A stretch of DNA of 64,000 nucleotides from a virus (lineage: Duplodnaviria > Caudoviricetes): positions 1-64,000 of the IMG/VR virus record IMGVR_UViG_3300025534_000006; one strand, given 5' to 3'. Within the stretch, counting starts at the first letter, position 1. Each line of letters begins with the position of its first letter. A program made the position numbers and the translations under genes. Below the pieces are notes generated by a model. That model saw nothing but the letters and a program-made list of their open reading frames with translations, was not told the origin of the DNA and did not search any database. Below are positions 1,970 through 29,899 of the stretch, piece after piece.

Positions 1970-4510
1970 TTAGTTCGGAACCCGCAACACTCGGTAGCCG
2001 GGGCCACCGCTGTCCGGGGCACCATAAGTGACATGACCACCGCCGGGGAAATTACTGATGTAGATAGCTTGCGATGGGATAACGCATACGCTGCTGTTGG
2101 TAGAGGCGCCCGTGACGTTAAAGCGAATATAGGAGTTCGGCGACGGGAACCCAGTATACCCGAGACCACCCGTTTGCGATCCATCGACTTCAATGGTGTC
2201 GCCACCCGTAGCGTTTGCAAAATAAATTGCCCCGGCACGGCATTCTTCGATCCGGGTAATGATGACATTGTTTGCCGAGGGGAAACCGGGCGCGCCAATG
2301 GTGATACCGTATGTATCGGTACTATCACTGTAGTAGTACATACGGCCGCCAACAATCACATTGGCGCTTTCAAGTAGCTGGATTTGGCTGACAGATGCAC
2401 CCTCCGCTGTGCAGTTGGACATCATATTGCCGGGTGTGTTGAACCGCCAGCATACGGTATGCTGCTTGTTCGGCTCAAACACGCTGCTCCATGCATGGCA
2501 GCTAGTGAATTTGAGGCCACTGCCATGCTTATAGGTCTCGAAGCCAATGTACTGATTACGATACACCAGCAGGCCGACAAAGGTGGAGTCCGAGGGGCCG
2601 CCCCAACGGATGCCGCCCGAATCGCAGTCATGCACCAGCACGTTATAAAGCGAAACCAGATGATTGTAGCCATGCGGCGTGACGCCGGGGATACCGCTTT
2701 CGCAGCGCATACCGATCCCTGAGAAGTTGCAAATTTCAACATTGCTGAGTTCGAATGCACCGCCATAGACGATAAGGCCGTTACCGGTAGCGCCATTCGC
2801 CACATTGCCGTCGATCACCATGTCCCGGAGGCCCCAGCCATAAATGCCATCCATGCTCTCGCCCCCGAACAGCGACGCAGCGTTCAGACCGGTGATGATA
2901 CCGTTGGGAGATGGGATCGCAGTTCCGGCCTTGAGCCGGATGATGGTGCCACCGGCAGGCTGATGATTGCCTTGCACGCCGCCAATTCCAGCGCCCTGCC
3001 AGATGGTGCGCCCCCGCTTGACCAGACCCGTGGTGATGTAGGTCCCTGCTGGGAAATACAGAATGCCGCCGCCCGCCGCCTCCAACGCAGTCTCGGCAGC
3101 ATTGATCGCCGCCGTGTCATCCGAGACGCCGTCGCCCTTGGCTCCGAAATCACGCACGCTGACGAAATCACCCAGCTTTTCGAGCACACTCCGCGCGACC
3201 GCGCCTGAACCGGTCTGTGTGAAGGCGGTAGAACTAATCGACGTGATCCGCCCCTTGGCATCGACCGCAATGGCAGGAACCGCATAAGTCCCCGCAGTGA
3301 CGCCCGTGGAGGCAAGGGTGATCGTGATGGTCCTGTTGGCACTGCCGTCGAAGGTGGTAGAACCGGTCACGTCGCCCGACAACGCGATGCTACGGGCCGT
3401 GGCGAGCTTGGTAGCGGTGCTTGCATTGCCGTTCAGGTTTGCATCAATGGTACCCTTGGTGCCCGAGAACACCTCATTGGTGTTGGTGGCATCGGGAATG
3501 AAGGTTAGGTAACCCGTCGATTTATCAAAGCCGAAGAAGCCGACCTTCGCAGCAGTGCCGTTGTGCCAACGGAACTCGATACCCCGGTCCTTGTTGTCAT
3601 CCGTAGTCGGCGCGGTGTCACCTCCCAAGGTGATGATCGGATCATCCACCGTCACCGTAGTCGAATTGACCGTGGTGGTGGTGCCATTGATCGTCAGGTT
3701 CCCAGTGATCGCCAGATTGCCGCCAACATTCAGGTTTCCGCCGATGCCGACACCGCCCGTGACCGTGAGGGCGCCCGTGCCGGTGCTGGTCGAAGCCGTG
3801 CTCTCGGTGATGGAAACATTTCGGCGCAGGGAGATCGACGAAGCGGTGACCGATACAGTGGTAGAACCGCTGGTCACGAGGGCGAAAGTATCCGTGGATC
3901 GATTGTATGTGATATAGTCGAGCGAATCGAATGCAAGGACCGGGATGCCATCCTGAAGAGTGAGATATCCGCTTGCATCGAGAGCAAAGCGCGTCGCGTA
4001 TGCCGAGCCGCCGATACCAACGCCGCCTGCTACAACGAGCGCACCCGTGGTCTTGCTGGTCGCTGCGGTTTCGTTGGTAATCGACAGCGCCGTCGCCGTG
4101 CTCGCACCACGACCCGTCACCGACGCGAAGGTATCGCTCTCCGCCGTGAGGTAGGCAACATTTGAAGCAGCAGTGACGCGCCCCTTGGCATCCACGGTAA
4201 CCCGATTATAGGTACCGGCCGAAACGCCCGTGGATGCAAGGGTGACCGTGATGGTCCTGTTGGCGCTGCCGTCGAAGCTGACAGACCCGGTCGCATCGCC
4301 CGACAGGGCGATGGTGCGGGCGGTAGCGAGCTTCGTCGCCGTGGTGGCCGCGTCCCCGACCGTGACAATGCTGTCATTGCCGCCGGAGGACTTCTTCAAA
4401 AAGAGCTTGCCATCCGTGGTGTTGACCGCAAGCTCACCGAGCGCAAGGTCGGTCGTAGTGGGAACCTTCCCGGAGACGCTGGTACGTCGAAGTAGAATCG
4501 GCTGAGACAT
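1970..4510 (-). CDS. Tail fibre/tailspike with C-terminal pectin-lyase-like beta-helix
   Basis: Start MSQPILL at 4510 after AAGGAAG; N-term GELAVNTTDGKLFLK; TKLATARTIALSGD repeats; VSVRDFGAKGDGVSDDTAAINAA...LYFPAGTY motif. Confidence 0.85.
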   Translation of the reverse strand: MSQPILLRRTSVSGKVPTTTDLALGELAVNTTDGKLFLKKSSGGNDSIVTVGDAATTATKLATARTIALSGDATGSVSFDGSANRTITVTLASTGVSAGTYNRVTVDAKGRVTAASNVAYLTAESDTFASVTGRGASTATALSITNETAATSKTTGALVVAGGVGIGGSAYATRFALDASGYLTLQDGIPVLAFDSLDYITYNRSTDTFALVTSGSTTVSVTASSISLRRNVSITESTASTSTGTGALTVTGGVGIGGNLNVGGNLAITGNLTINGTTTTVNSTTVTVDDPIITLGGDTAPTTDDNKDRGIEFRWHNGTAAKVGFFGFDKSTGYLTFIPDATNTNEVFSGTKGTIDANLNGNASTATKLATARSIALSGDVTGSTTFDGSANRTITITLASTGVTAGTYAVPAIAVDAKGRITSISSTAFTQTGSGAVARSVLEKLGDFVSVRDFGAKGDGVSDDTAAINAAETALEAAGGGILYFPAGTYITTGLVKRGRTIWQGAGIGGVQGNHQPAGGTIIRLKAGTAIPSPNGIITGLNAASLFGGESMDGIYGWGLRDMVIDGNVANGATGNGLIVYGGAFELSNVEICNFSGIGMRCESGIPGVTPHGYNHLVSLYNVLVHDCDSGGIRWGGPSDSTFVGLLVYRNQYIGFETYKHGSGLKFTSCHAWSSVFEPNKQHTVCWRFNTPGNMMSNCTAEGASVSQIQLLESANVIVGGRMYYYSDSTDTYGITIGAPGFPSANNVIITRIEECRAGAIYFANATGGDTIEVDGSQTGGLGYTGFPSPNSYIRFNVTGASTNSSVCVIPSQAIYISNFPGGGHVTYGAPDSGGPGYRVLRVPN

Positions 4511-4579
4511 ACTCAAATAGCTTCCTTCAATGGGCTCCAGCGGCGCGGCCGGTACCTGCAATCCGCGAGCGGTACGGAC

Positions 4580-4586
4580 TATTTAG
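4580..4586 (-). promoter_or_regulatory. Late promoter TAAATA
   Basis: CTAAATA upstream of tailspike. Confidence 0.6.
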
Positions 4587-4621: not shown

Positions 4622-5902
4622 TCAGAATGTGCCACCATCGATCACGTCCGTGGGGCTCAGCGGCGTGTAGCCGAGCGCCGCAGTGACATGGGACGAGGAC
4701 AGGGCCATGGCGGAAGTCACGCGGCCCTTGGCATCGACGACGATGTTGCTGTAGGTACCAGCGACAACGCCGGAATTAGCAAGGGTCAGAGTGATCGCTG
4801 TGGTACCCGAGCCACTGGCATCACCGGAGACGGTGATGTTCTGGTTACCGGTCAGGTATGCCACATTTGAAGCAGCGGTGACGCGCCCCTTGGCATCTAC
4901 AGTAACCCGATTATAGGTACCGGCCGAAACGCCAGAAGCGGCGAGGGTGACCGTGATCGTCCTGTTGGCGCTACCGTCAAAGCTGACAGACCCGGTTGCA
5001 TCGCCCGACAGGGCAATGGTACAGGCGGTAGCGAGCTTCGTGGCAGTGCCAGCATTGCCCGACACATCACCCGTCACGTTACCGATGAGGTCCGCCTCAA
5101 TTGTACCCTTCGTTCCCGCGAACACTTCATTGGTGTTGGTGGCATCGGGGATGAAAACAAACCGCCCGGTCGAATCATCGAAACCGAAGAAGCCGATCTT
5201 CGCGGCAGTGCCGTTGTGCCAGCGGAACTCAATACCCCGATCCTTGTTGTCGTCCGAAGTCGGAGCGGCGTCGCCACCCAGCGTGATGATCGGGTCGTCC
5301 ACGGTGACCGTGGTCGAGTTCACGGTGGTGGTGGTGCCGTTGATCGTCAGGTTGCCGGTGACGGACAGGTTGCCGCCGACATTCAGATTGCCGCCGATGC
5401 CGACGCCACCGGTCACCTTGAGGGCGCCCGTGCTGGACGAGGTGGAGGCGGTGTTGTTGGTGATCGAGACGGCGGTACCGGTGGTCGCGCCCCGGCCGGT
5501 CACGGTCGCCAGAGTGTCGCTTTCCTCCGTCAGGAAGGGCGAATTCGAGGCGCTGGTCACTCGGCCCTTGGCATCTACGACGACGCTGTTGTACGTGCCC
5601 GGCGTGACGCCAGAGGCGGCGAGAGTGACCGTGATGGTCCTGTTGACGCTGCCGTCGAAGGTGGTCGAGCCAGTCACGTCGCCCGACAGGGCGATGGTGC
5701 GCGCGGTGGCGAGCTTGTCGGCGGTACCGGCCGATTCTGCAACGGCGCCGATCTCGACAATGGTTTCGGTCCCGGAAGCCGACTTCTTGAAAAACAGCTT
5801 GCCGTCAGTGGTATTGACCGCAAGTTCGCCGAGTTCAATATCGGCAGTCTGCGGCGCCTTGCCCGGCGTTGCTGTACGCTTGAGTAGGATTTGGTTTGCC
5901 AT
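4622..5902 (-). CDS. Tail fibre-like protein (paralog without enzymatic tip)
   Basis: MANQILLKR...GELAVNTTDGKLF; same repeats; ends IDGGTF. Confidence 0.8.
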   Translation of the reverse strand: MANQILLKRTATPGKAPQTADIELGELAVNTTDGKLFFKKSASGTETIVEIGAVAESAGTADKLATARTIALSGDVTGSTTFDGSVNRTITVTLAASGVTPGTYNSVVVDAKGRVTSASNSPFLTEESDTLATVTGRGATTGTAVSITNNTASTSSSTGALKVTGGVGIGGNLNVGGNLSVTGNLTINGTTTTVNSTTVTVDDPIITLGGDAAPTSDDNKDRGIEFRWHNGTAAKIGFFGFDDSTGRFVFIPDATNTNEVFAGTKGTIEADLIGNVTGDVSGNAGTATKLATACTIALSGDATGSVSFDGSANRTITVTLAASGVSAGTYNRVTVDAKGRVTAASNVAYLTGNQNITVSGDASGSGTTAITLTLANSGVVAGTYSNIVVDAKGRVTSAMALSSSHVTAALGYTPLSPTDVIDGGTF

Positions 5903-5986
5903 TTTTCCCCACATGTGATGCTCTGAAATCAGAGCGAAGGCCGTGCTGAATTTTTAAGCAGCAGGCTCTCGCTCTGTTTGTGGGGA

Positions 5987-6393: not shown

Positions 6394-6400
6394 TATTTAG
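6394..6400 (-). promoter_or_regulatory. Late promoter TAAATA
   Basis: CTAAATA upstream of 6321. Confidence 0.6.
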
Positions 6401-7357: not shown

Positions 7358-9445
7358 TTACACCTCGTAGACCGCGCGCCCGGCGAACCATGTGGTCGAT
7401 CCGGGGAAGCGCATGAAGGTGTAGATCGTGGTCTTGCCTGCGGCGGTGTTCATCGGCAGAGCCTCACCCATGTCCCAAACGAGGTTGCCGCCACTCACTG
7501 TGAAGCTCGCCGTATGGCTGCCGTCGCCTACGAGCGCCACCATCAGCGTCGTGACATAGGTGCTGTCCGACGGAATATTGATGGTGATGGCGGTGTTGCT
7601 GTTCACCGTCAGCTTCCAGATTTTTGTCGCGTCGTTGATGACCGATGTCGTGGACGTATTGGCGACCACGCAGGTTTCCCCCTTGAGGTCGGCGGCGGAG
7701 AGATCGGACCCGGCGACCACCCGCCCTTTGGCATCGACGACCACCTTGGAATAGGTCCCGGCAGCCACACCGGATGCGGCGAGAGTCGCGCTGATCGTAA
7801 CATTGGTGGAGCCGTCAAAGGAGGCGGTACCCGTGGCATCACCGGAGAGCGCGATGGTACGGGCCGTATTGAGCTTGGAGGCGGTCGAGGCATTGCCGGT
7901 AAGCGGTCCGACCAAGGCCGCCGCCGTCACGGTACCGCCAACATTGAGGTTTCCACCGATCCCAACGCCGCCCGACACGACAAGCGCGCCCGTACCGGTG
8001 CTGGTTGACGCGACGGAGTTGGTGATGGAGACTGCCGTGTTGGTCGTGGAGCCGCGCCCCGTTACGGTCGCCAGCGTGTCGCTTTCCTCAGTCAGGTAGC
8101 CCGCATTCGAGCCTTGCGTCACCCGACCCTTGGAATCGACCGTGACCGTGTTGTAGGTCCCGGCGATCACGCCGGAACTCGTCAGGGTGGCAGTGATCGT
8201 CGCATTAGCGGAGCCGTCAAAGGCCACCGATCCCGAAGCATCGCCCGTCAAGGAGATCGTCCGCGCCACGGCCAATTTGGACGCCGTCGAGGCATTACCG
8301 GTCACGGTGCCATTGAGATTGGCATCGATAGTGCCCTTCGCGCCCGAGAACACCTCGTTCGTGTTGGTCGCATCCGGAATGAAGGTGAAATGGCCGGTGC
8401 TGTTGTCGAAACCGAAGAAGCCGATTTTGGCGCTGGTGCCATCATGCCATCGATATTCGATGCCGCGATCCTTGCTGTCGTTCACAGCGGGGGCAGTATC
8501 GCCACCCAGAGTGATGATGGGATCATCCACCGTGATCGTGGACGAGTTGACAGTGGTGGTGGTGCCGTTGATGACCAGATTGCCCGACACATTCAGGTCG
8601 CCGCCGAGGTGGAGCGCGCCGCCGATACCGACTCCTCCGGCGACGACCAGCGCACCGGTCCCGGTGGAGGTCGCGGCGGTAGTGTTCGTGACCGACAGCG
8701 ACGGCACTGCAAGCGCACCGGTCATGGTATCGCCCGCGCGATTCACGGGCGTGTAGCCCAGCGAGCCGATCACATCCGCAGGCGAGACCGATTCAACGCC
8801 GACGACCCGTCCCTTGGCATCCACGATAACCTTGGAATAGGTCCCAGCGGTCACGCCGGATGGGGCAAGGGTTGCGGTGATCGTGGCATTGGACGAGCCG
8901 TCGAAATTGGCGGACCCGGTCACGTCGCCGGACAGCGCGATGCTGCGCGACGTAACCAGCTTGGTGGCCGTTGATGCGTTTCCGGTCAGCGGACCAATGA
9001 ACCCGGAGGCGGCCAGCGAGCCGGTCATCGTATCACCGGCCCGATTGACTGGGGTGTAGCCGAGCGCGGTGACGATATCCTCATTGATCTGGCCGCCACC
9101 TGCCAGCACTCGTCCCTTGATGTCCACGATAACCTTGGAATAGGTCCCGGCAGCCACACCGGTCGGGGTGAGACCGACCGTGATGACGGCATCCGCCGTG
9201 CCATCGAAATTCGCCATGCCGGTCGCATCACCGGTCAGCGAAATTTTCCGTGTGGTGGCGAGCTTGGTAGCGGTCACGGCATTCGCGCCGACTTCCACAA
9301 TGCTCTCGACCCCGCTGGTCTGGCGTCGCTTGAGGAACAGCTTGCCATCGGCGGTATTGATGGCGACCTCACCGAGGTCGATGTCGTTTAAGGTTGGAAC
9401 TTTACCCGGAATCGAGGAGCGGGTGGCAATCAGCTTGAAGGCCAT
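7358..9445 (-). CDS. Tail fibre-like protein (third paralog)
   Basis: MAFKLIATRSSIPGKVP...GEVAINTADGKLFLK; multiple ALSGD/TYSKVxVDxKGRV repeats; distinct C-terminal domain. Confidence 0.82.
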   Translation of the reverse strand: MAFKLIATRSSIPGKVPTLNDIDLGEVAINTADGKLFLKRRQTSGVESIVEVGANAVTATKLATTRKISLTGDATGMANFDGTADAVITVGLTPTGVAAGTYSKVIVDIKGRVLAGGGQINEDIVTALGYTPVNRAGDTMTGSLAASGFIGPLTGNASTATKLVTSRSIALSGDVTGSANFDGSSNATITATLAPSGVTAGTYSKVIVDAKGRVVGVESVSPADVIGSLGYTPVNRAGDTMTGALAVPSLSVTNTTAATSTGTGALVVAGGVGIGGALHLGGDLNVSGNLVINGTTTTVNSSTITVDDPIITLGGDTAPAVNDSKDRGIEYRWHDGTSAKIGFFGFDNSTGHFTFIPDATNTNEVFSGAKGTIDANLNGTVTGNASTASKLAVARTISLTGDASGSVAFDGSANATITATLTSSGVIAGTYNTVTVDSKGRVTQGSNAGYLTEESDTLATVTGRGSTTNTAVSITNSVASTSTGTGALVVSGGVGIGGNLNVGGTVTAAALVGPLTGNASTASKLNTARTIALSGDATGTASFDGSTNVTISATLAASGVAAGTYSKVVVDAKGRVVAGSDLSAADLKGETCVVANTSTTSVINDATKIWKLTVNSNTAITINIPSDSTYVTTLMVALVGDGSHTASFTVSGGNLVWDMGEALPMNTAAGKTTIYTFMRFPGSTTWFAGRAVYEV

Positions 9446-9533
9446 AATGACTTTCTCCGAATAGGCATTCTTGGTCCGAAGGCGGGCAGCGCCCGCTCGG
9501 GATTAGTTCAGGCTGAATCGTGATCCAGCGCGG

Positions 9534-9540
9534 TATTTAG
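9534..9540 (-). promoter_or_regulatory. Late promoter TAAATA
   Basis: CTAAATA upstream of fibre 9445. Confidence 0.6.
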
Positions 9541-9544
9541 GATC

Positions 9545-10265
9545 GGTGACATGGCGACACGGGCGCTCGCTCCTCGCGCCCGTGTGCCGCAGGGCGGGCG
9601 CTCGCTTCGCTCGCGCCTTGTCGCCCTGCGGCTTCCGACATGTCGGGTGATGCGGGCTTTGGAGCATTCGTCGGATTTGAAGGTTGGATGATTCTGATCG
9701 TGTCAGCCGAGGAGAATGTCGCCTTTCTCCCCCGGCATCCCGGCGCGAATCCATAGACATGGACAGGCGCGAGATGACGAAGGAGAGAAGGCGACGGAAC
9801 GGGCTGTGTCAGCCATCGGGTCAGTCGTTCGATAAGCGGCGATCCGGCTTTACGCCGGAAGCTGGCGGTTCCCCGGAACCAGCATGTGACCGCCCTATCC
9901 CGGTCGGCCGCACCTACGATGGGATAGGGGCTTGTCGCGGATATCCAGTGGCTTAATCACGCGGGCCTTGCACCCCGGTCGGCCTTGGTGACCTGAACGG
10001 TTACGGGCAGGATTGCCCGAGCACGTGCGCCCAGCTATCGAAGGACCGGGCACACGCGGATAGTTGTCAGAGCGTAGACAGAGCTATCCTCTTGAGAGTG
10101 CCTTTCGCGGGAAAATATGCCCCGCAGGGCGGCCGTTACTCACCTCACTGACGCGAGCGGGTGATGTCCGTCCCTATGGCCGCGCTGCCGGGCGGTTCGG
10201 TCTGAGTCCCGAATGGCCCTTGTGGGCGGGGGAGGCCCGATGATTGCCCCCTGCGCTGGTATGCC
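9545..10265 (-). ncRNA. Candidate large structured non-coding RNA (or structured cis element)
   Basis: No credible ORF in about 750 nt; dense hairpins (9557-9585, 9589-9629, 9718-9795, 9843-9859, 9861-9883, 9893-9929, 10004-10019, 10058-10089); sigma70-like promoter reading into it. Confidence 0.45.
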
Positions 10266-10268
10266 CCG

Positions 10269-10298
10269 ACCATATGCGGGCGCCGGATCATTTGTCAA
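10269..10298 (-). promoter_or_regulatory. sigma70-like promoter
   Basis: TTGACA-N18-TATGGT. Confidence 0.5.
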
Positions 10299-10341
10299 TA
10301 AATCCGTGCAGAGCACCACGATATTCCCGTGCGCCGGATCG

Positions 10342-10370
10342 TTGAGATTCCGGCGGGACTAGGCTATGGT
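10342..10370 (+). promoter_or_regulatory. sigma70-like promoter (divergent partner)
   Basis: TTGAGA-N17-TATGGT upstream of 10407. Confidence 0.5.
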
Positions 10371-10406
10371 GTGAGCCAAAACGATCTCCGCATTTGAGAA
10401 ACTCTT

Positions 10407-11567
10407 TTGGAAAAGATTGTCCCCCTGCATACGCTGGTCCTCGTCGCGGGCAGTGACCCCGAGGGCTGGTTCGGTATATTTCCGCCGCATGAGGTAGTGG
10501 CCCCGGCTGCGGTTCAGCATGATCTCGTCGGTCCCGGAGACCGGCCGGACCTGTCCGGCATCGTCGCCGCCGAGGTACGCCGTCGCGTGGCCCTGAAACT
10601 CTCCCTCGGTGAGAGGGTCGTCGTGGATGCGCACGACCTGAGCCGGGACGCCCGCCTCGGGCTCTGCCATCTCGCCCGCGCGCAGGGCTCACCGGTCATC
10701 TATCTTCTCGGCAAGACCGTCCCGGATGCAAATCTGCTGCACGGGGACGGCCTTGCCGTGGTGGTAAGGGCAGGGGAGGCGGTCCGTCCGGTCCTGCCGA
10801 TGCCGGACGATCCACTGACCGCCCTGCGGGCACGCTACCGGGGTGTGACGGTGGTGGGCGACATCCATGGTGACCGTGCCGCCCTGCGGAATGTCGTTGC
10901 GTGGGCGCAGTCGCGCGGACATTACCTCTGGCTTCTGGGCGACGTTCTCGACTACGGACCGGACAGCTTGGCGGTCGCCGAGGACACCTATGATCTCGTC
11001 ATGACGGGGCGGGCGGCGCTCACCTTGGGCAACCACGAGCGCAAGATCGCGCGCTGGATCGCCACGCAGGAAAGCGGCGGCACGCCGATGCGCCTGAGCG
11101 AGGGCAACCGGGTGACCGTCGAGGCGCTGCGCGCCCTTTCGGCGGCCGAGCGCGGGCGCTGGATCGGCCGGTTCCGTAGCCTGATCGGGCGATCCTGCCT
11201 GATCGGCCAGTGCGGCAGCATGATCTTCGTCCATGCGGCGGTTCATCCGCATTTCTGGGGCGGGGTGCAGAACCCCGACGACCGCGCCATCGAGCACTAC
11301 GCCCTGTATGGCGAGACCGACCCGAATACTCCACCGCCCGGCTACCGCAGGAGCTATGGCTGGGTCGAGCACGTGCCTGCGGGCCAGACGGTGTTTGTCG
11401 GCCACGACGTGCGCTCCAATGTGGCACCTCTCACGGTGGTGGGGCGCGCCGGAGGGCGCACCGTGTTCCTCGACACCGGCTGCGGCAAGGGCGGACGCCT
11501 GTCCACGGCCGATCTGCGCTTTGGCGCGGATGGTCAGTTGCGCCTCGAAAACTTCAACATCCATTGA
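10407..11567 (+). CDS. PNKP-like protein: degenerate kinase domain plus metallophosphoesterase
   Basis: GDIHGD, GDVLDYGP, GNHE, HA, GHD, LDTGC phosphoesterase motifs; N-domain has VVVDA but no Walker A GKS. Confidence 0.8.
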   Translation: MEKIVPLHTLVLVAGSDPEGWFGIFPPHEVVAPAAVQHDLVGPGDRPDLSGIVAAEVRRRVALKLSLGERVVVDAHDLSRDARLGLCHLARAQGSPVIYLLGKTVPDANLLHGDGLAVVVRAGEAVRPVLPMPDDPLTALRARYRGVTVVGDIHGDRAALRNVVAWAQSRGHYLWLLGDVLDYGPDSLAVAEDTYDLVMTGRAALTLGNHERKIARWIATQESGGTPMRLSEGNRVTVEALRALSAAERGRWIGRFRSLIGRSCLIGQCGSMIFVHAAVHPHFWGGVQNPDDRAIEHYALYGETDPNTPPPGYRRSYGWVEHVPAGQTVFVGHDVRSNVAPLTVVGRAGGRTVFLDTGCGKGGRLSTADLRFGADGQLRLENFNIH

Positions 11568-11593
11568 CACCGGAATAATGTGGTGAACCTGTC

Positions 11594-11600
11594 CTAAATA
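11594..11600 (+). promoter_or_regulatory. Late promoter TAAATA
   Basis: CTAAATA upstream of HNH gene. Confidence 0.6.
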
Positions 11601-11624
11601 CAGGGCGCCTTTTTAAGCCCGATC

Positions 11625-12212
11625 ATGGATGCGACACTGCTGCTCAACGCGGATGGTACTCCACTCAGCCTGCTGCCCCTGTCATCCATCGGTTGGCAGG
11701 ATGCATTGAAGTTCTTGTGGCCGGGTGAGGCGGAACCCCTGCACCTCTATGAGGACTGGTACGTGCGCAGTCCGAGTGTGGCGGTGCAGGTGCCAGCCGT
11801 GCTGATCCTGCGGCAGCAGGTCCCGGTGCGCCGTGCGCAGTACATCGGGGAGTACCCGGCGGCCGAGATGGTCTTTCTGCGCGACAACTACACCTGCCAG
11901 TATTGCCGCAAGGAGTTTCCCCGCAACGCGCTGACGCTCGATCACGTCCTGCCGCGCAAATTCGGCGGCAAGTCGCATTGGAACAACCTCACGAGCGCCT
12001 GTGAGCCGTGCAACGGCAAGCGGGGCCATGATGTGCGCATCCAGCCAGCGACGAAGCCGTTCCGGCCGACCTACCACCAGCTTATCAACAATCTCAAGCG
12101 GCGCCCGCTCATGGTCGGGCATCCGTCATGGAATTTCTATCTCGGCTGGCCGCCGGAGAACATCCGCCTGTGCGATCCGAGAAAACGCGAATCAGACGCA
12201 CGGGAATTTTGA
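11625..12212 (+). CDS. HNH endonuclease
   Basis: RDNYTCQYC...LTLDHVLPR..GGK..W.NL..AC..CN..R. Confidence 0.9.
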   Translation: MDATLLLNADGTPLSLLPLSSIGWQDALKFLWPGEAEPLHLYEDWYVRSPSVAVQVPAVLILRQQVPVRRAQYIGEYPAAEMVFLRDNYTCQYCRKEFPRNALTLDHVLPRKFGGKSHWNNLTSACEPCNGKRGHDVRIQPATKPFRPTYHQLINNLKRRPLMVGHPSWNFYLGWPPENIRLCDPRKRESDAREF

Positions 12213-29892: not shown

Positions 29893-29899
29893 CTAAATA
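29893..29899 (+). promoter_or_regulatory. Late promoter TAAATA
   Basis: CTAAATA upstream of kinase. Confidence 0.6.

Follow-up and report, generated by a model that had tools for sequence, protein, structure and literature searches.

A long gene-free region between divergent genes

Does the longest gene-free stretch in a densely coding part of a jumbo phage genome encode a large structured RNA and, if it does, from which strand is it read and to what kind does it belong? The DNA analysed (64 kb, hereafter the window) is the first part of an 85.8-kb IMG/VR virus record with a CheckV completeness of 17%. Because the same DNA sits within a 484,642-bp metagenome contig (G+C 62%), its source is an uncultured jumbo phage of ~485 kb, whose host probably belongs to the Alphaproteobacteria.

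A preliminary description of the window had singled out the region as its longest gene-free stretch, and we confirmed a gap of 961 nt (positions 9446-10406). The window's longest stretch lacking a stop-to-stop open reading frame of at least 100 amino acids (9957-10290) lies inside this gap. Both flanking genes point away from it. On the minus strand there is a tail-fibre gene (7358-9445, assigned by tail-fibre PHROGs) and on the plus strand a gene for a PNKP-like kinase-phosphatase with AAA_33 and Metallophos domains (10407-11567). The PNKP-like protein is 33-35% identical to its counterparts in Agrobacterium phage Atu_ph07 and Sinorhizobium phage Phosso, and the phosphatase-HNH gene pair of the window is syntenic with both phages.

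A protein-coding gene or pseudogene was rejected as an explanation. Translated matches of the region to its relatives are short (10-79 amino acids) and weak, fall in all six frames and never keep the same frame throughout, and insertions and deletions inside conserved blocks are not multiples of three; we therefore regard the region as non-coding. A conserved open reading frame, which the preliminary description had named as one of the findings that would speak against an RNA, was not seen.

Relatives in other large phages

Using the gap alone as query, nhmmer retrieved L005:2665-3271 (E 1e-18) and L007:4406-4845 (E 4e-17). Both are non-coding DNA adjoining PNKP-like genes, which is where the preliminary description had expected homologues. 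The PNKP-like proteins of these loci are 48-53% identical to that of the window, the closest PNKP-like proteins being ~50% identical. Neighbouring proteins are 47-54% identical, yet the RNA region is kept at the nucleotide level, where indels of 1-2 nt and insertions of entire hairpins break up the conserved blocks.

Profile iterations added L009 (549-kb contig), L059 (identical with L060), L077 (240-kb contig), L065 (identical with L072; 457-kb contig) and L058, a partial member cut by the end of its contig. A degenerate core pattern together with a covariance model, R1, added L088 (561 kb), L094 (578 kb), L090, L089 (identical with L091) and L092 (identical with L095), with E-values of 1e-14 to 1e-30. 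Altogether, profile and covariance-model searches gave about 12 distinct full or partial relatives on phage contigs, several of which exceed 450 kb. The phages measure 240-580 kb and the G+C content of the RNA-bearing contigs ranges from 37 to 64%. R1 detects one copy in the window's own 85.8-kb record.

Other searches returned no further members. R1 did not match Atu_ph07, Phosso or the records behind L083 and L075; three family members gave no blastn match among GenBank phages; and viral and metagenome contigs searched by the PNKP-like protein held no related loci. Mapping of reads and contigs on the element recovered the source contig and two short near-identical contigs only. A strict hairpin pattern gave 0 matches in viral contigs and 0 in genome contigs. 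The 48 matches of a 15-mer scan of viral contigs were all within coding sequence and were not taken as relatives. The degenerate core pattern matched bacterial genomes 12 times, against an estimate of ~33 matches expected by chance, and these were treated as chance; R1 gives them only 12-16 bits, and Rfam shows no RNA at those places.

We detected a second non-coding element, here subfamily B, in L083:5241-5971(+), L062:1369-2039(-) and L075:2601-3281(+), and also in L064/L066, which group with L062; ~500 nt are conserved among its members, and L083 comes from a complete 453-kb phage. It has a multiloop domain, GCUGG...GGGCAACC...CCAGC, in common with the window RNA, and shows a weak match to the core (E 7e-5). 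The two probably belong to one RNA class, in which subfamily B is a distant branch. A further GGGCAACC hairpin motif, followed by a hairpin with a GGAAA loop, was noticed around L063:3186-3212 on a 92.9-kb IMG/VR contig. The profile does not recognise it, and this copy may be a third related RNA or a chance occurrence.

A conserved, covarying and pseudoknotted fold

Compared with shuffled sequences, the minus strand folds with z = -7.4 over the whole gap and -4.1 over the 545-nt conserved core (10262-9718); for the plus strand the values are -4.6 and -3.3. Twenty control windows from the same phage have a mean z of -0.84 and a minimum of -2.6.

Base pairs were counted on two plain MAFFT alignments that were not fitted to the structure (A2 and A6) and on a model-fitted alignment of the core (A5). 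In A2 (7 sequences, 39 pairs), 96.0% of the cells are paired, compared with 82.5% in shuffles, none of 500 of which reaches this value, and 33-49% in slid controls. A6 (10 sequences, 43 pairs in 8 helices, two of them long-range) is paired in 94.6% of cells, against 79.8% in shuffles and 34-48% when slid, and both sides change in 27 of its 43 pairs. For A5, with 15 distinct sequences, the corresponding values are 94.5% and 72.7%, with a covariation score of 0.62 against 0.21; in all of these comparisons the shuffle controls overstate significance, since the distinct sequences are few (10-15) and related. The 5' domain and the hairpins of variable length are unalignable by MAFFT and were analysed sequence by sequence. 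Three more hairpins keep their positions in every sequence although their stems are unrelated.

The region has a conserved, covarying and pseudoknotted fold. It exceeds 400 nt, has no conserved open reading frame, combines covarying helices with pseudoknots or tertiary pairs and is conserved across divergent genomes, as is characteristic of large ornate non-coding RNAs. The covariation that the preliminary description had proposed to look for is strong and extends to the pseudoknots and long-range pairs. All of the helices that it had named are present, namely 9557-9566 with 9576-9585 (10 bp), 9893-9901 with 9921-9929 (9 bp) and 9718-9731 with 9781-9795. One further candidate pairing, GAAGG/CCUUU (10040-10044 with 10101-10105), was rejected as probably a coincidence of purine and pyrimidine runs.

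Elements of the fold from 5' to 3'

All elements are given on the minus strand. The 5' domain (10182-10256) has a 4-bp long-range closing helix, 10253-10256 with 10182-10185. This helix covaries, reading GCGC/GCGC in the window and L005, GCUC/GAGC in L007, GCCC/GGGC in L009, GUCC/GGAC in L077 and GUUC/GAAC in L065, and it has one A.C mismatch in L060. Within it lies an H-type pseudoknot (10224-10251) formed by stem B (10247-10251 with 10228-10232) and stem A (10235-10238 with 10224-10227). A pseudoknot of this architecture, with at least 9 bp, is found in all seven homologues at an equal distance from the -10 box, with both stems differing in sequence. Since 23% of mononucleotide-shuffled leaders form such a pseudoknot somewhere, its occurrence in register in seven out of seven is unlikely to be due to chance. 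The next hairpin, CGG.GA...AGA.CCG (10196-10200 with 10209-10213), keeps the motifs CGGGA and AGACCG in all seven homologues; its stem is invariant and thus uninformative for covariation.

The region 10100-10164 contains a variable hairpin (10140-10144 with 10160-10164), whose stem sequence differs in each homologue, and a second hairpin consisting of an outer helix (10100-10102 with 10131-10133) and an inner helix (10107-10111 with 10121-10125). The conserved box ACGGCCGC (RNA sense, 10129-10137) is located here. Every homologue has a hairpin in this region with its own stem sequence, and the outer helix is mostly GCC/GGC, being GUC/GAC in L005.

A nearly invariant AAGAGGAU precedes the signature hairpin GGAUAG...CUAUCC (10058-10089), in which 10058-10063 pair with 10084-10089 and an inner stem joins 10065-10068 to 10077-10080. 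This hairpin is 100% paired, with compensation in the outer stem from A-U to G-C or C-G and in the inner stem from U-A to C-G and from G-C to A-U. It is followed by a 9-bp hairpin (10024-10032 with 10048-10056); every one of its 9 pairs varies on both sides, and pairing is kept in 93% of the cells. The loop of this hairpin provides one strand of a long-range helix or pseudoknot, in which bases 10037-10042 pair with 9828-9833, ~200 nt away. Five of these six pairs vary on both sides, and pairing is found in 85% of the cells (10 sequences, A6).

The segment 9995-10019 contains a hairpin (10004-10009 with 10014-10019) and, after it, the invariant box UAACCGUU (RNA sense, 9996-10003). The stems of this hairpin are different in every homologue, all four counted pairs covary, and the loop is a GNRA tetraloop (GAAA, GCAA or GAGA) in 5 of 13 distinct sequences, in the minus-strand reading only. 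A loop-to-junction tertiary helix (9868-9998) connects the GUUC of the invariant UAACCGUUC (9995-9998) with the GAAC of the hairpin loop GGGGAACC (9868-9871). Three of its pairs are invariant, and the fourth is C-G in five sequences, G-C in two, U-A in one and unpaired in two. The intervening region (9894-9994), which includes the 9-bp hairpin 9893-9901/9921-9929, varies from ~35 to 130 nt among homologues and can be aligned in part only.

The three-way multiloop domain (9836-9893), which is common to subfamily B, is closed by 9836-9840 with 9889-9893, where 4 of 5 pairs covary. It comprises a small hairpin (9843-9848 with 9854-9859, loop GUAAA) and a second hairpin (9861-9865 with 9879-9883) bearing the conserved loop GGGGAACC. 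The small hairpin has its own stem in each homologue and a GAAA, GCAA or GUAA loop on the minus strand, so that the GNRA-like loops seen in the preliminary description are real and recur in homologues. The conserved core ends with a terminal hairpin (9718-9731 with 9781-9795) of a pyrimidine strand, UUCUCUCC, and a purine strand, GGGGGAGAAA, both of which are kept in most homologues.

Promoter and ends of the RNA

Upstream of the element, on the minus strand, a predicted promoter (10269-10305) matches the sigma-70 consensus, with a -35 box TTGACA (10298-10293), an 18-nt spacer, a -10 box TATGGT (10274-10269) and an A/T-rich upstream stretch. It agrees with the consensus at 10 of 12 positions, and 0.2 such sites are expected in shuffles of the region. 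Judging from the promoter spacing, transcription probably starts at an A near 10262. The motif TTGAC-N18-TAnnnT with an A/T-rich upstream stretch was matched by regular expression at the same place in 9 of the 13 sequences that include upstream DNA, with no match in the other 4. In the first seven homologues, TTGAC-N18 and a -10-like hexamer stand 35-44 nt ahead of the first conserved minus-strand helix, as they do in L088 and L094. The promoter noted in the preliminary description is thus conserved in position and spacing.

Two tandem GC-rich hairpins (9557-9632), both perfect, are formed by 9622-9632 with 9586-9596 (11 bp) and by 9576-9585 with 9557-9566 (10 bp). They are presumed to be the 3' end or terminator; they have no U tail and are not kept in homologues, a canonical U-tailed terminator being found in L065 only. 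The RNA would measure roughly 550-700 bases, the upper figure resting on a 3' end placed at these hairpins. The undescribed ~700-nt structured RNA initially proposed is supported by the conserved covarying fold and the lack of an Rfam match, whereas conservation is limited to 9718-10262 and the full ~700 nt depend on the presumed 3' end.

As had been observed, the hairpins are followed by a late promoter-like motif, CTAAATA (9534-9540, minus strand), ~90 nt ahead of the start codon of the tail-fibre gene (9445). The window has 16 copies of CTAAATA where 0.67 are expected, and most of them lie directly ahead of genes; examples are 4580-4586(-), 6394-6400(-), 9534-9540(-), 11594-11600(+) and 29893-29899(+). 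Evidently this is a T4-late-like promoter motif belonging to the phage itself, and the copy at 9534-9540, as a predicted promoter, marks the next transcription unit.

On the plus strand, a second sigma-70-like promoter (TTGAGA-17-TATGGT, 10342-10370) is directed at the PNKP-like gene. It stands back to back with the promoter of the RNA, about 45 nt apart, as a compact divergent early-promoter pair. At ~3650-3790 of L009, a perfect inverted repeat of 11-12 bp brackets the RNA promoter, and a strong hairpin after the upstream SLT gene adjoins it. One arm of the repeat overlaps the 5' pseudoknot strand, so that alternative pairing is possible.

Comparison with known RNAs

At gathering thresholds, an Rfam 15 cmscan of the window gave 0 matches; with E raised to 10, the gap matched miRNA and snoRNA models only, by chance, and at E up to 0.1 six homologous loci showed no match at the element. 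No covariance-model match to GOLLD (RF01998), ROOL (RF03087), OLE, HEARO or raiA was obtained in the window, the gap or the six homologues. ARAGORN finds 0 tRNA or tmRNA genes in the 64-kb window, and no tmRNA family appears in the Rfam scans. RNase P RNA, group I and II introns, hammerhead, twister and other self-cleaving ribozymes are likewise without an Rfam match in the gap at E up to 10, which extends the failure of the preliminary description to recognise a tmRNA, RNase P or intron by eye. An intron was rejected on the additional ground that the flanks are complete, divergent genes without exons of a split gene. No paper describing the RNA family was found in the literature searched. We count the element as a candidate new family within a known kind, the large ornate structured RNAs, as no catalogued RNA family matches it.

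The closest parallels are GOLLD and ROOL, which like the window RNA are longer than 500 nt, ornate, multi-pseudoknotted, borne by phages or prophages, encoded by free-standing genes and rich in invariant loop and junction nucleotides. There is no similarity to them in sequence or by covariance model. Their hosts also differ, as the window RNA occurs in jumbo phages of 240-580 kb, whereas GOLLD and ROOL are mostly from Firmicutes and lake metagenomes, and the link of GOLLD and ROOL to tRNA genes is absent here, ARAGORN finding no tRNA in the 64-kb window. The phi29 pRNA and ColE1 RNA II, also phage or plasmid RNAs that are made from a host-type promoter and act as folded RNAs, are functional analogies only. 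The former is a 174-nt RNA forming a ring in the packaging motor and the latter a replication preprimer without conserved pseudoknots. Neither resembles the window RNA in sequence or fold, and nothing seen here connects the window RNA with either packaging or replication.

A large structured RNA, probably encoded by a gene of its own

We consider it highly probable that positions 10298 to ~9545 of the minus strand make up a free-standing gene, the product of which is a large structured non-coding RNA. Host-type sigma-70 RNA polymerase would start near 10262 at the conserved TTGACA-N18-TATGGT promoter, whose type would imply early expression, and transcription would terminate at the hairpins 9557-9632. 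In the fold shown by covariation, the 4-bp helix closes a 5' domain that is locked by the H-type pseudoknot, and the invariant GGAUAG hairpin and the 9-bp hairpin form a central domain. The 3' three-way multiloop domain docks on the latter via two long-range helices; in one of these a hairpin loop pairs with bases ~200 nt away, in the other the GGGGAACC loop pairs with the UAACCGUU junction. The RNA would act in trans as a folded RNA and not as the leader of a neighbouring gene, because the downstream gene is convergent in L007 and L009 and, in the window, the hairpins and the late-promoter motif separate it from the tail-fibre gene.

With regard to function, our leading guess, which within this explanation falls a little short of an even chance, is an ornate RNA of the GOLLD/ROOL kind (a scaffold, self-assembling particle or protein-binding RNA) acting early in infection. 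It is placed with GOLLD and ROOL on account of its size, invariant junctions and several tertiary contacts; according to the findings set out in a preprint, both of these form RNA-only multimers (bioRxiv 10.1101/2024.12.08.627333). A ribozyme comes next, and any choice between a protein-binding scaffold, a decoy and a ribozyme is speculative. Gene neighbourhood is a poor guide here, as a PNKP-like RNA-repair gene is near the RNA in some loci and lacking in others. A more far-reaching proposal, which we regard as possible though doubtful, is that this is a new large phage RNA class with an early activity of its own, an RNA-only assembly or ribozyme used against the host by giant phages of several bacterial phyla, within a wider superfamily. 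The superfamily is suggested by the GGGSAACC multiloop module, which subfamily B and possibly other elements carry.

To our knowledge, only about a dozen bacterial or phage RNA classes are this large and intricately folded, and each of those that have been solved (RNase P, group I and II introns, OLE, ROOL and GOLLD) gave new biochemistry or architecture. In the present family the fold is well defined, three or more contacts being of the pseudoknot type, and the host-type promoter is conserved; the family is spread over phages of 240-580 kb with a G+C content of 37-64%. These features make it a good target for cryo-EM and for work on cell takeover by jumbo phages.

That the RNA is a ribozyme, self-cleaving or otherwise catalytic, instead of a scaffold or binding RNA appears improbable. 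Its size, its invariant junction and loop nucleotides (UAACCGUU, GGGGAACC, AAGAGGAU and ACGGCCGC) and its several pseudoknots are typical of large ribozymes. However, a threshold as permissive as E 10 brings up no ribozyme family, there are neither flanking exons nor an obvious substrate, and ROOL and GOLLD are, as described in the same preprint, equally complex without the need of catalysis (bioRxiv 10.1101/2024.12.08.627333).

Functional strand and remaining alternatives

A reading on the plus strand, which makes the element an RNA ahead of the kinase-phosphatase/HNH operon or its long structured 5' leader, underlay our first alignments, which followed the orientation of the PNKP-like gene, and was dropped after strand tests. 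The orientation relative to the PNKP-like gene is equal in the four loci where element and gene stand near each other, and the absolute minimum free energy is about equal on both strands. One conserved complementarity, AACGGUU with GGCCGU, is G.U-rich and would work on the plus strand only; it shows no true covariation. Against this, the 39 pairs contain 12 G.U and 3 A.C combinations if read on the minus strand but 3 and 12, respectively, if read on the plus strand, and the two hairpins with GAAA, GCAA, GUAA or GAGA loops have them only on the minus strand; on the plus strand these loops become UUUC or UUGC and lose the GNRA pattern. A different study yielded two short contigs that match parts of the element with ~99% identity but depart from it at 9781 in the terminal hairpin and at 10052 in the 9-bp hairpin (both A>G), and each change turns a minus-strand G.U into G-C; as single contigs of depth 2-3.6, they give a hint only. 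On the plus strand the conserved TTGAC-N18-TAnnnT would be left without a role, and the PNKP-like gene is served by a promoter of its own (10342-10370) that comes after the element in this direction. This gene lies at most 1.3 kb from the RNA in four loci and is absent within 5 kb in six others, and other genes intervene between the two in L005 and L009. The pair counts, GNRA loops, conserved promoter, folding z-scores and two substitutions support the minus strand as the functional one, and we regard a functional plus strand as very unlikely.

The suggestion of the preliminary description that the region might instead be a replication origin, with a structured transcript serving as primer or R-loop former like ColE1 RNA II or the T4 ori transcripts, we hold to be just as unlikely as the plus-strand reading. 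An origin would suit the location of this large non-coding stretch between divergent units, as well as its strong host-type promoter and its predicted ~550-nt transcript, which is similar in size to RNA II. However, the cumulative GC skew rises smoothly through 9-11 kb without a turn, iterons and an A/T-rich unwinding region are lacking here, the only repeats being short and in two copies, and the G+C content of the RNA region is that of the genome. Moreover, the covarying pseudoknots, loop-to-junction pairs and GNRA loops point to a compact RNA fold and not to an RNA-DNA hybrid.

The least likely alternative, to which we give hardly any credence, is a cis-acting leader (riboswitch or attenuator) of the minus-strand tail-fibre gene. 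In its favour, a tail-fibre gene comes next on this strand in both the window and L005, and the core ends in a purine-rich strand, GGGGGAGAAA, sequestered by a pyrimidine strand. Against it, no start codon comes after the purine strand, core and gene are kept apart by ~270 nt, two strong hairpins and a separate motif for a late promoter, and the downstream gene is convergent in L007 and L009.

Neighbouring genes

At L005, the closest syntenic relative, another ~500 nt without a called gene (2069-2584) lie between the RNA core and the tail-fibre gene, and these are unlike 9446-9717 of the window. The window's tail-fibre gene is one of three paralogous tail-fibre-like genes, all on the minus strand (1970-4561, 4622-5914 and 7358-9445), with the repeat families phrog_697, 7389 and 5181 in common. 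The first of these (1970-4561) encodes an additional pectate-lyase-like beta-helix, which is a depolymerase-type domain.

On the other side of the element, the genes for the kinase-metallophosphatase and, after it, an HNH endonuclease are conserved as a pair (10407-12212 in the window; also in L002, L003, L007, L008 and L009), which recurs in Atu_ph07, in Phosso and in many jumbo phages that are uncultured. Genes for RtcB, RNA ligase or peptidyl-tRNA hydrolase adjoin the pair in some of these phages, an arrangement that resembles an RNA-repair module.
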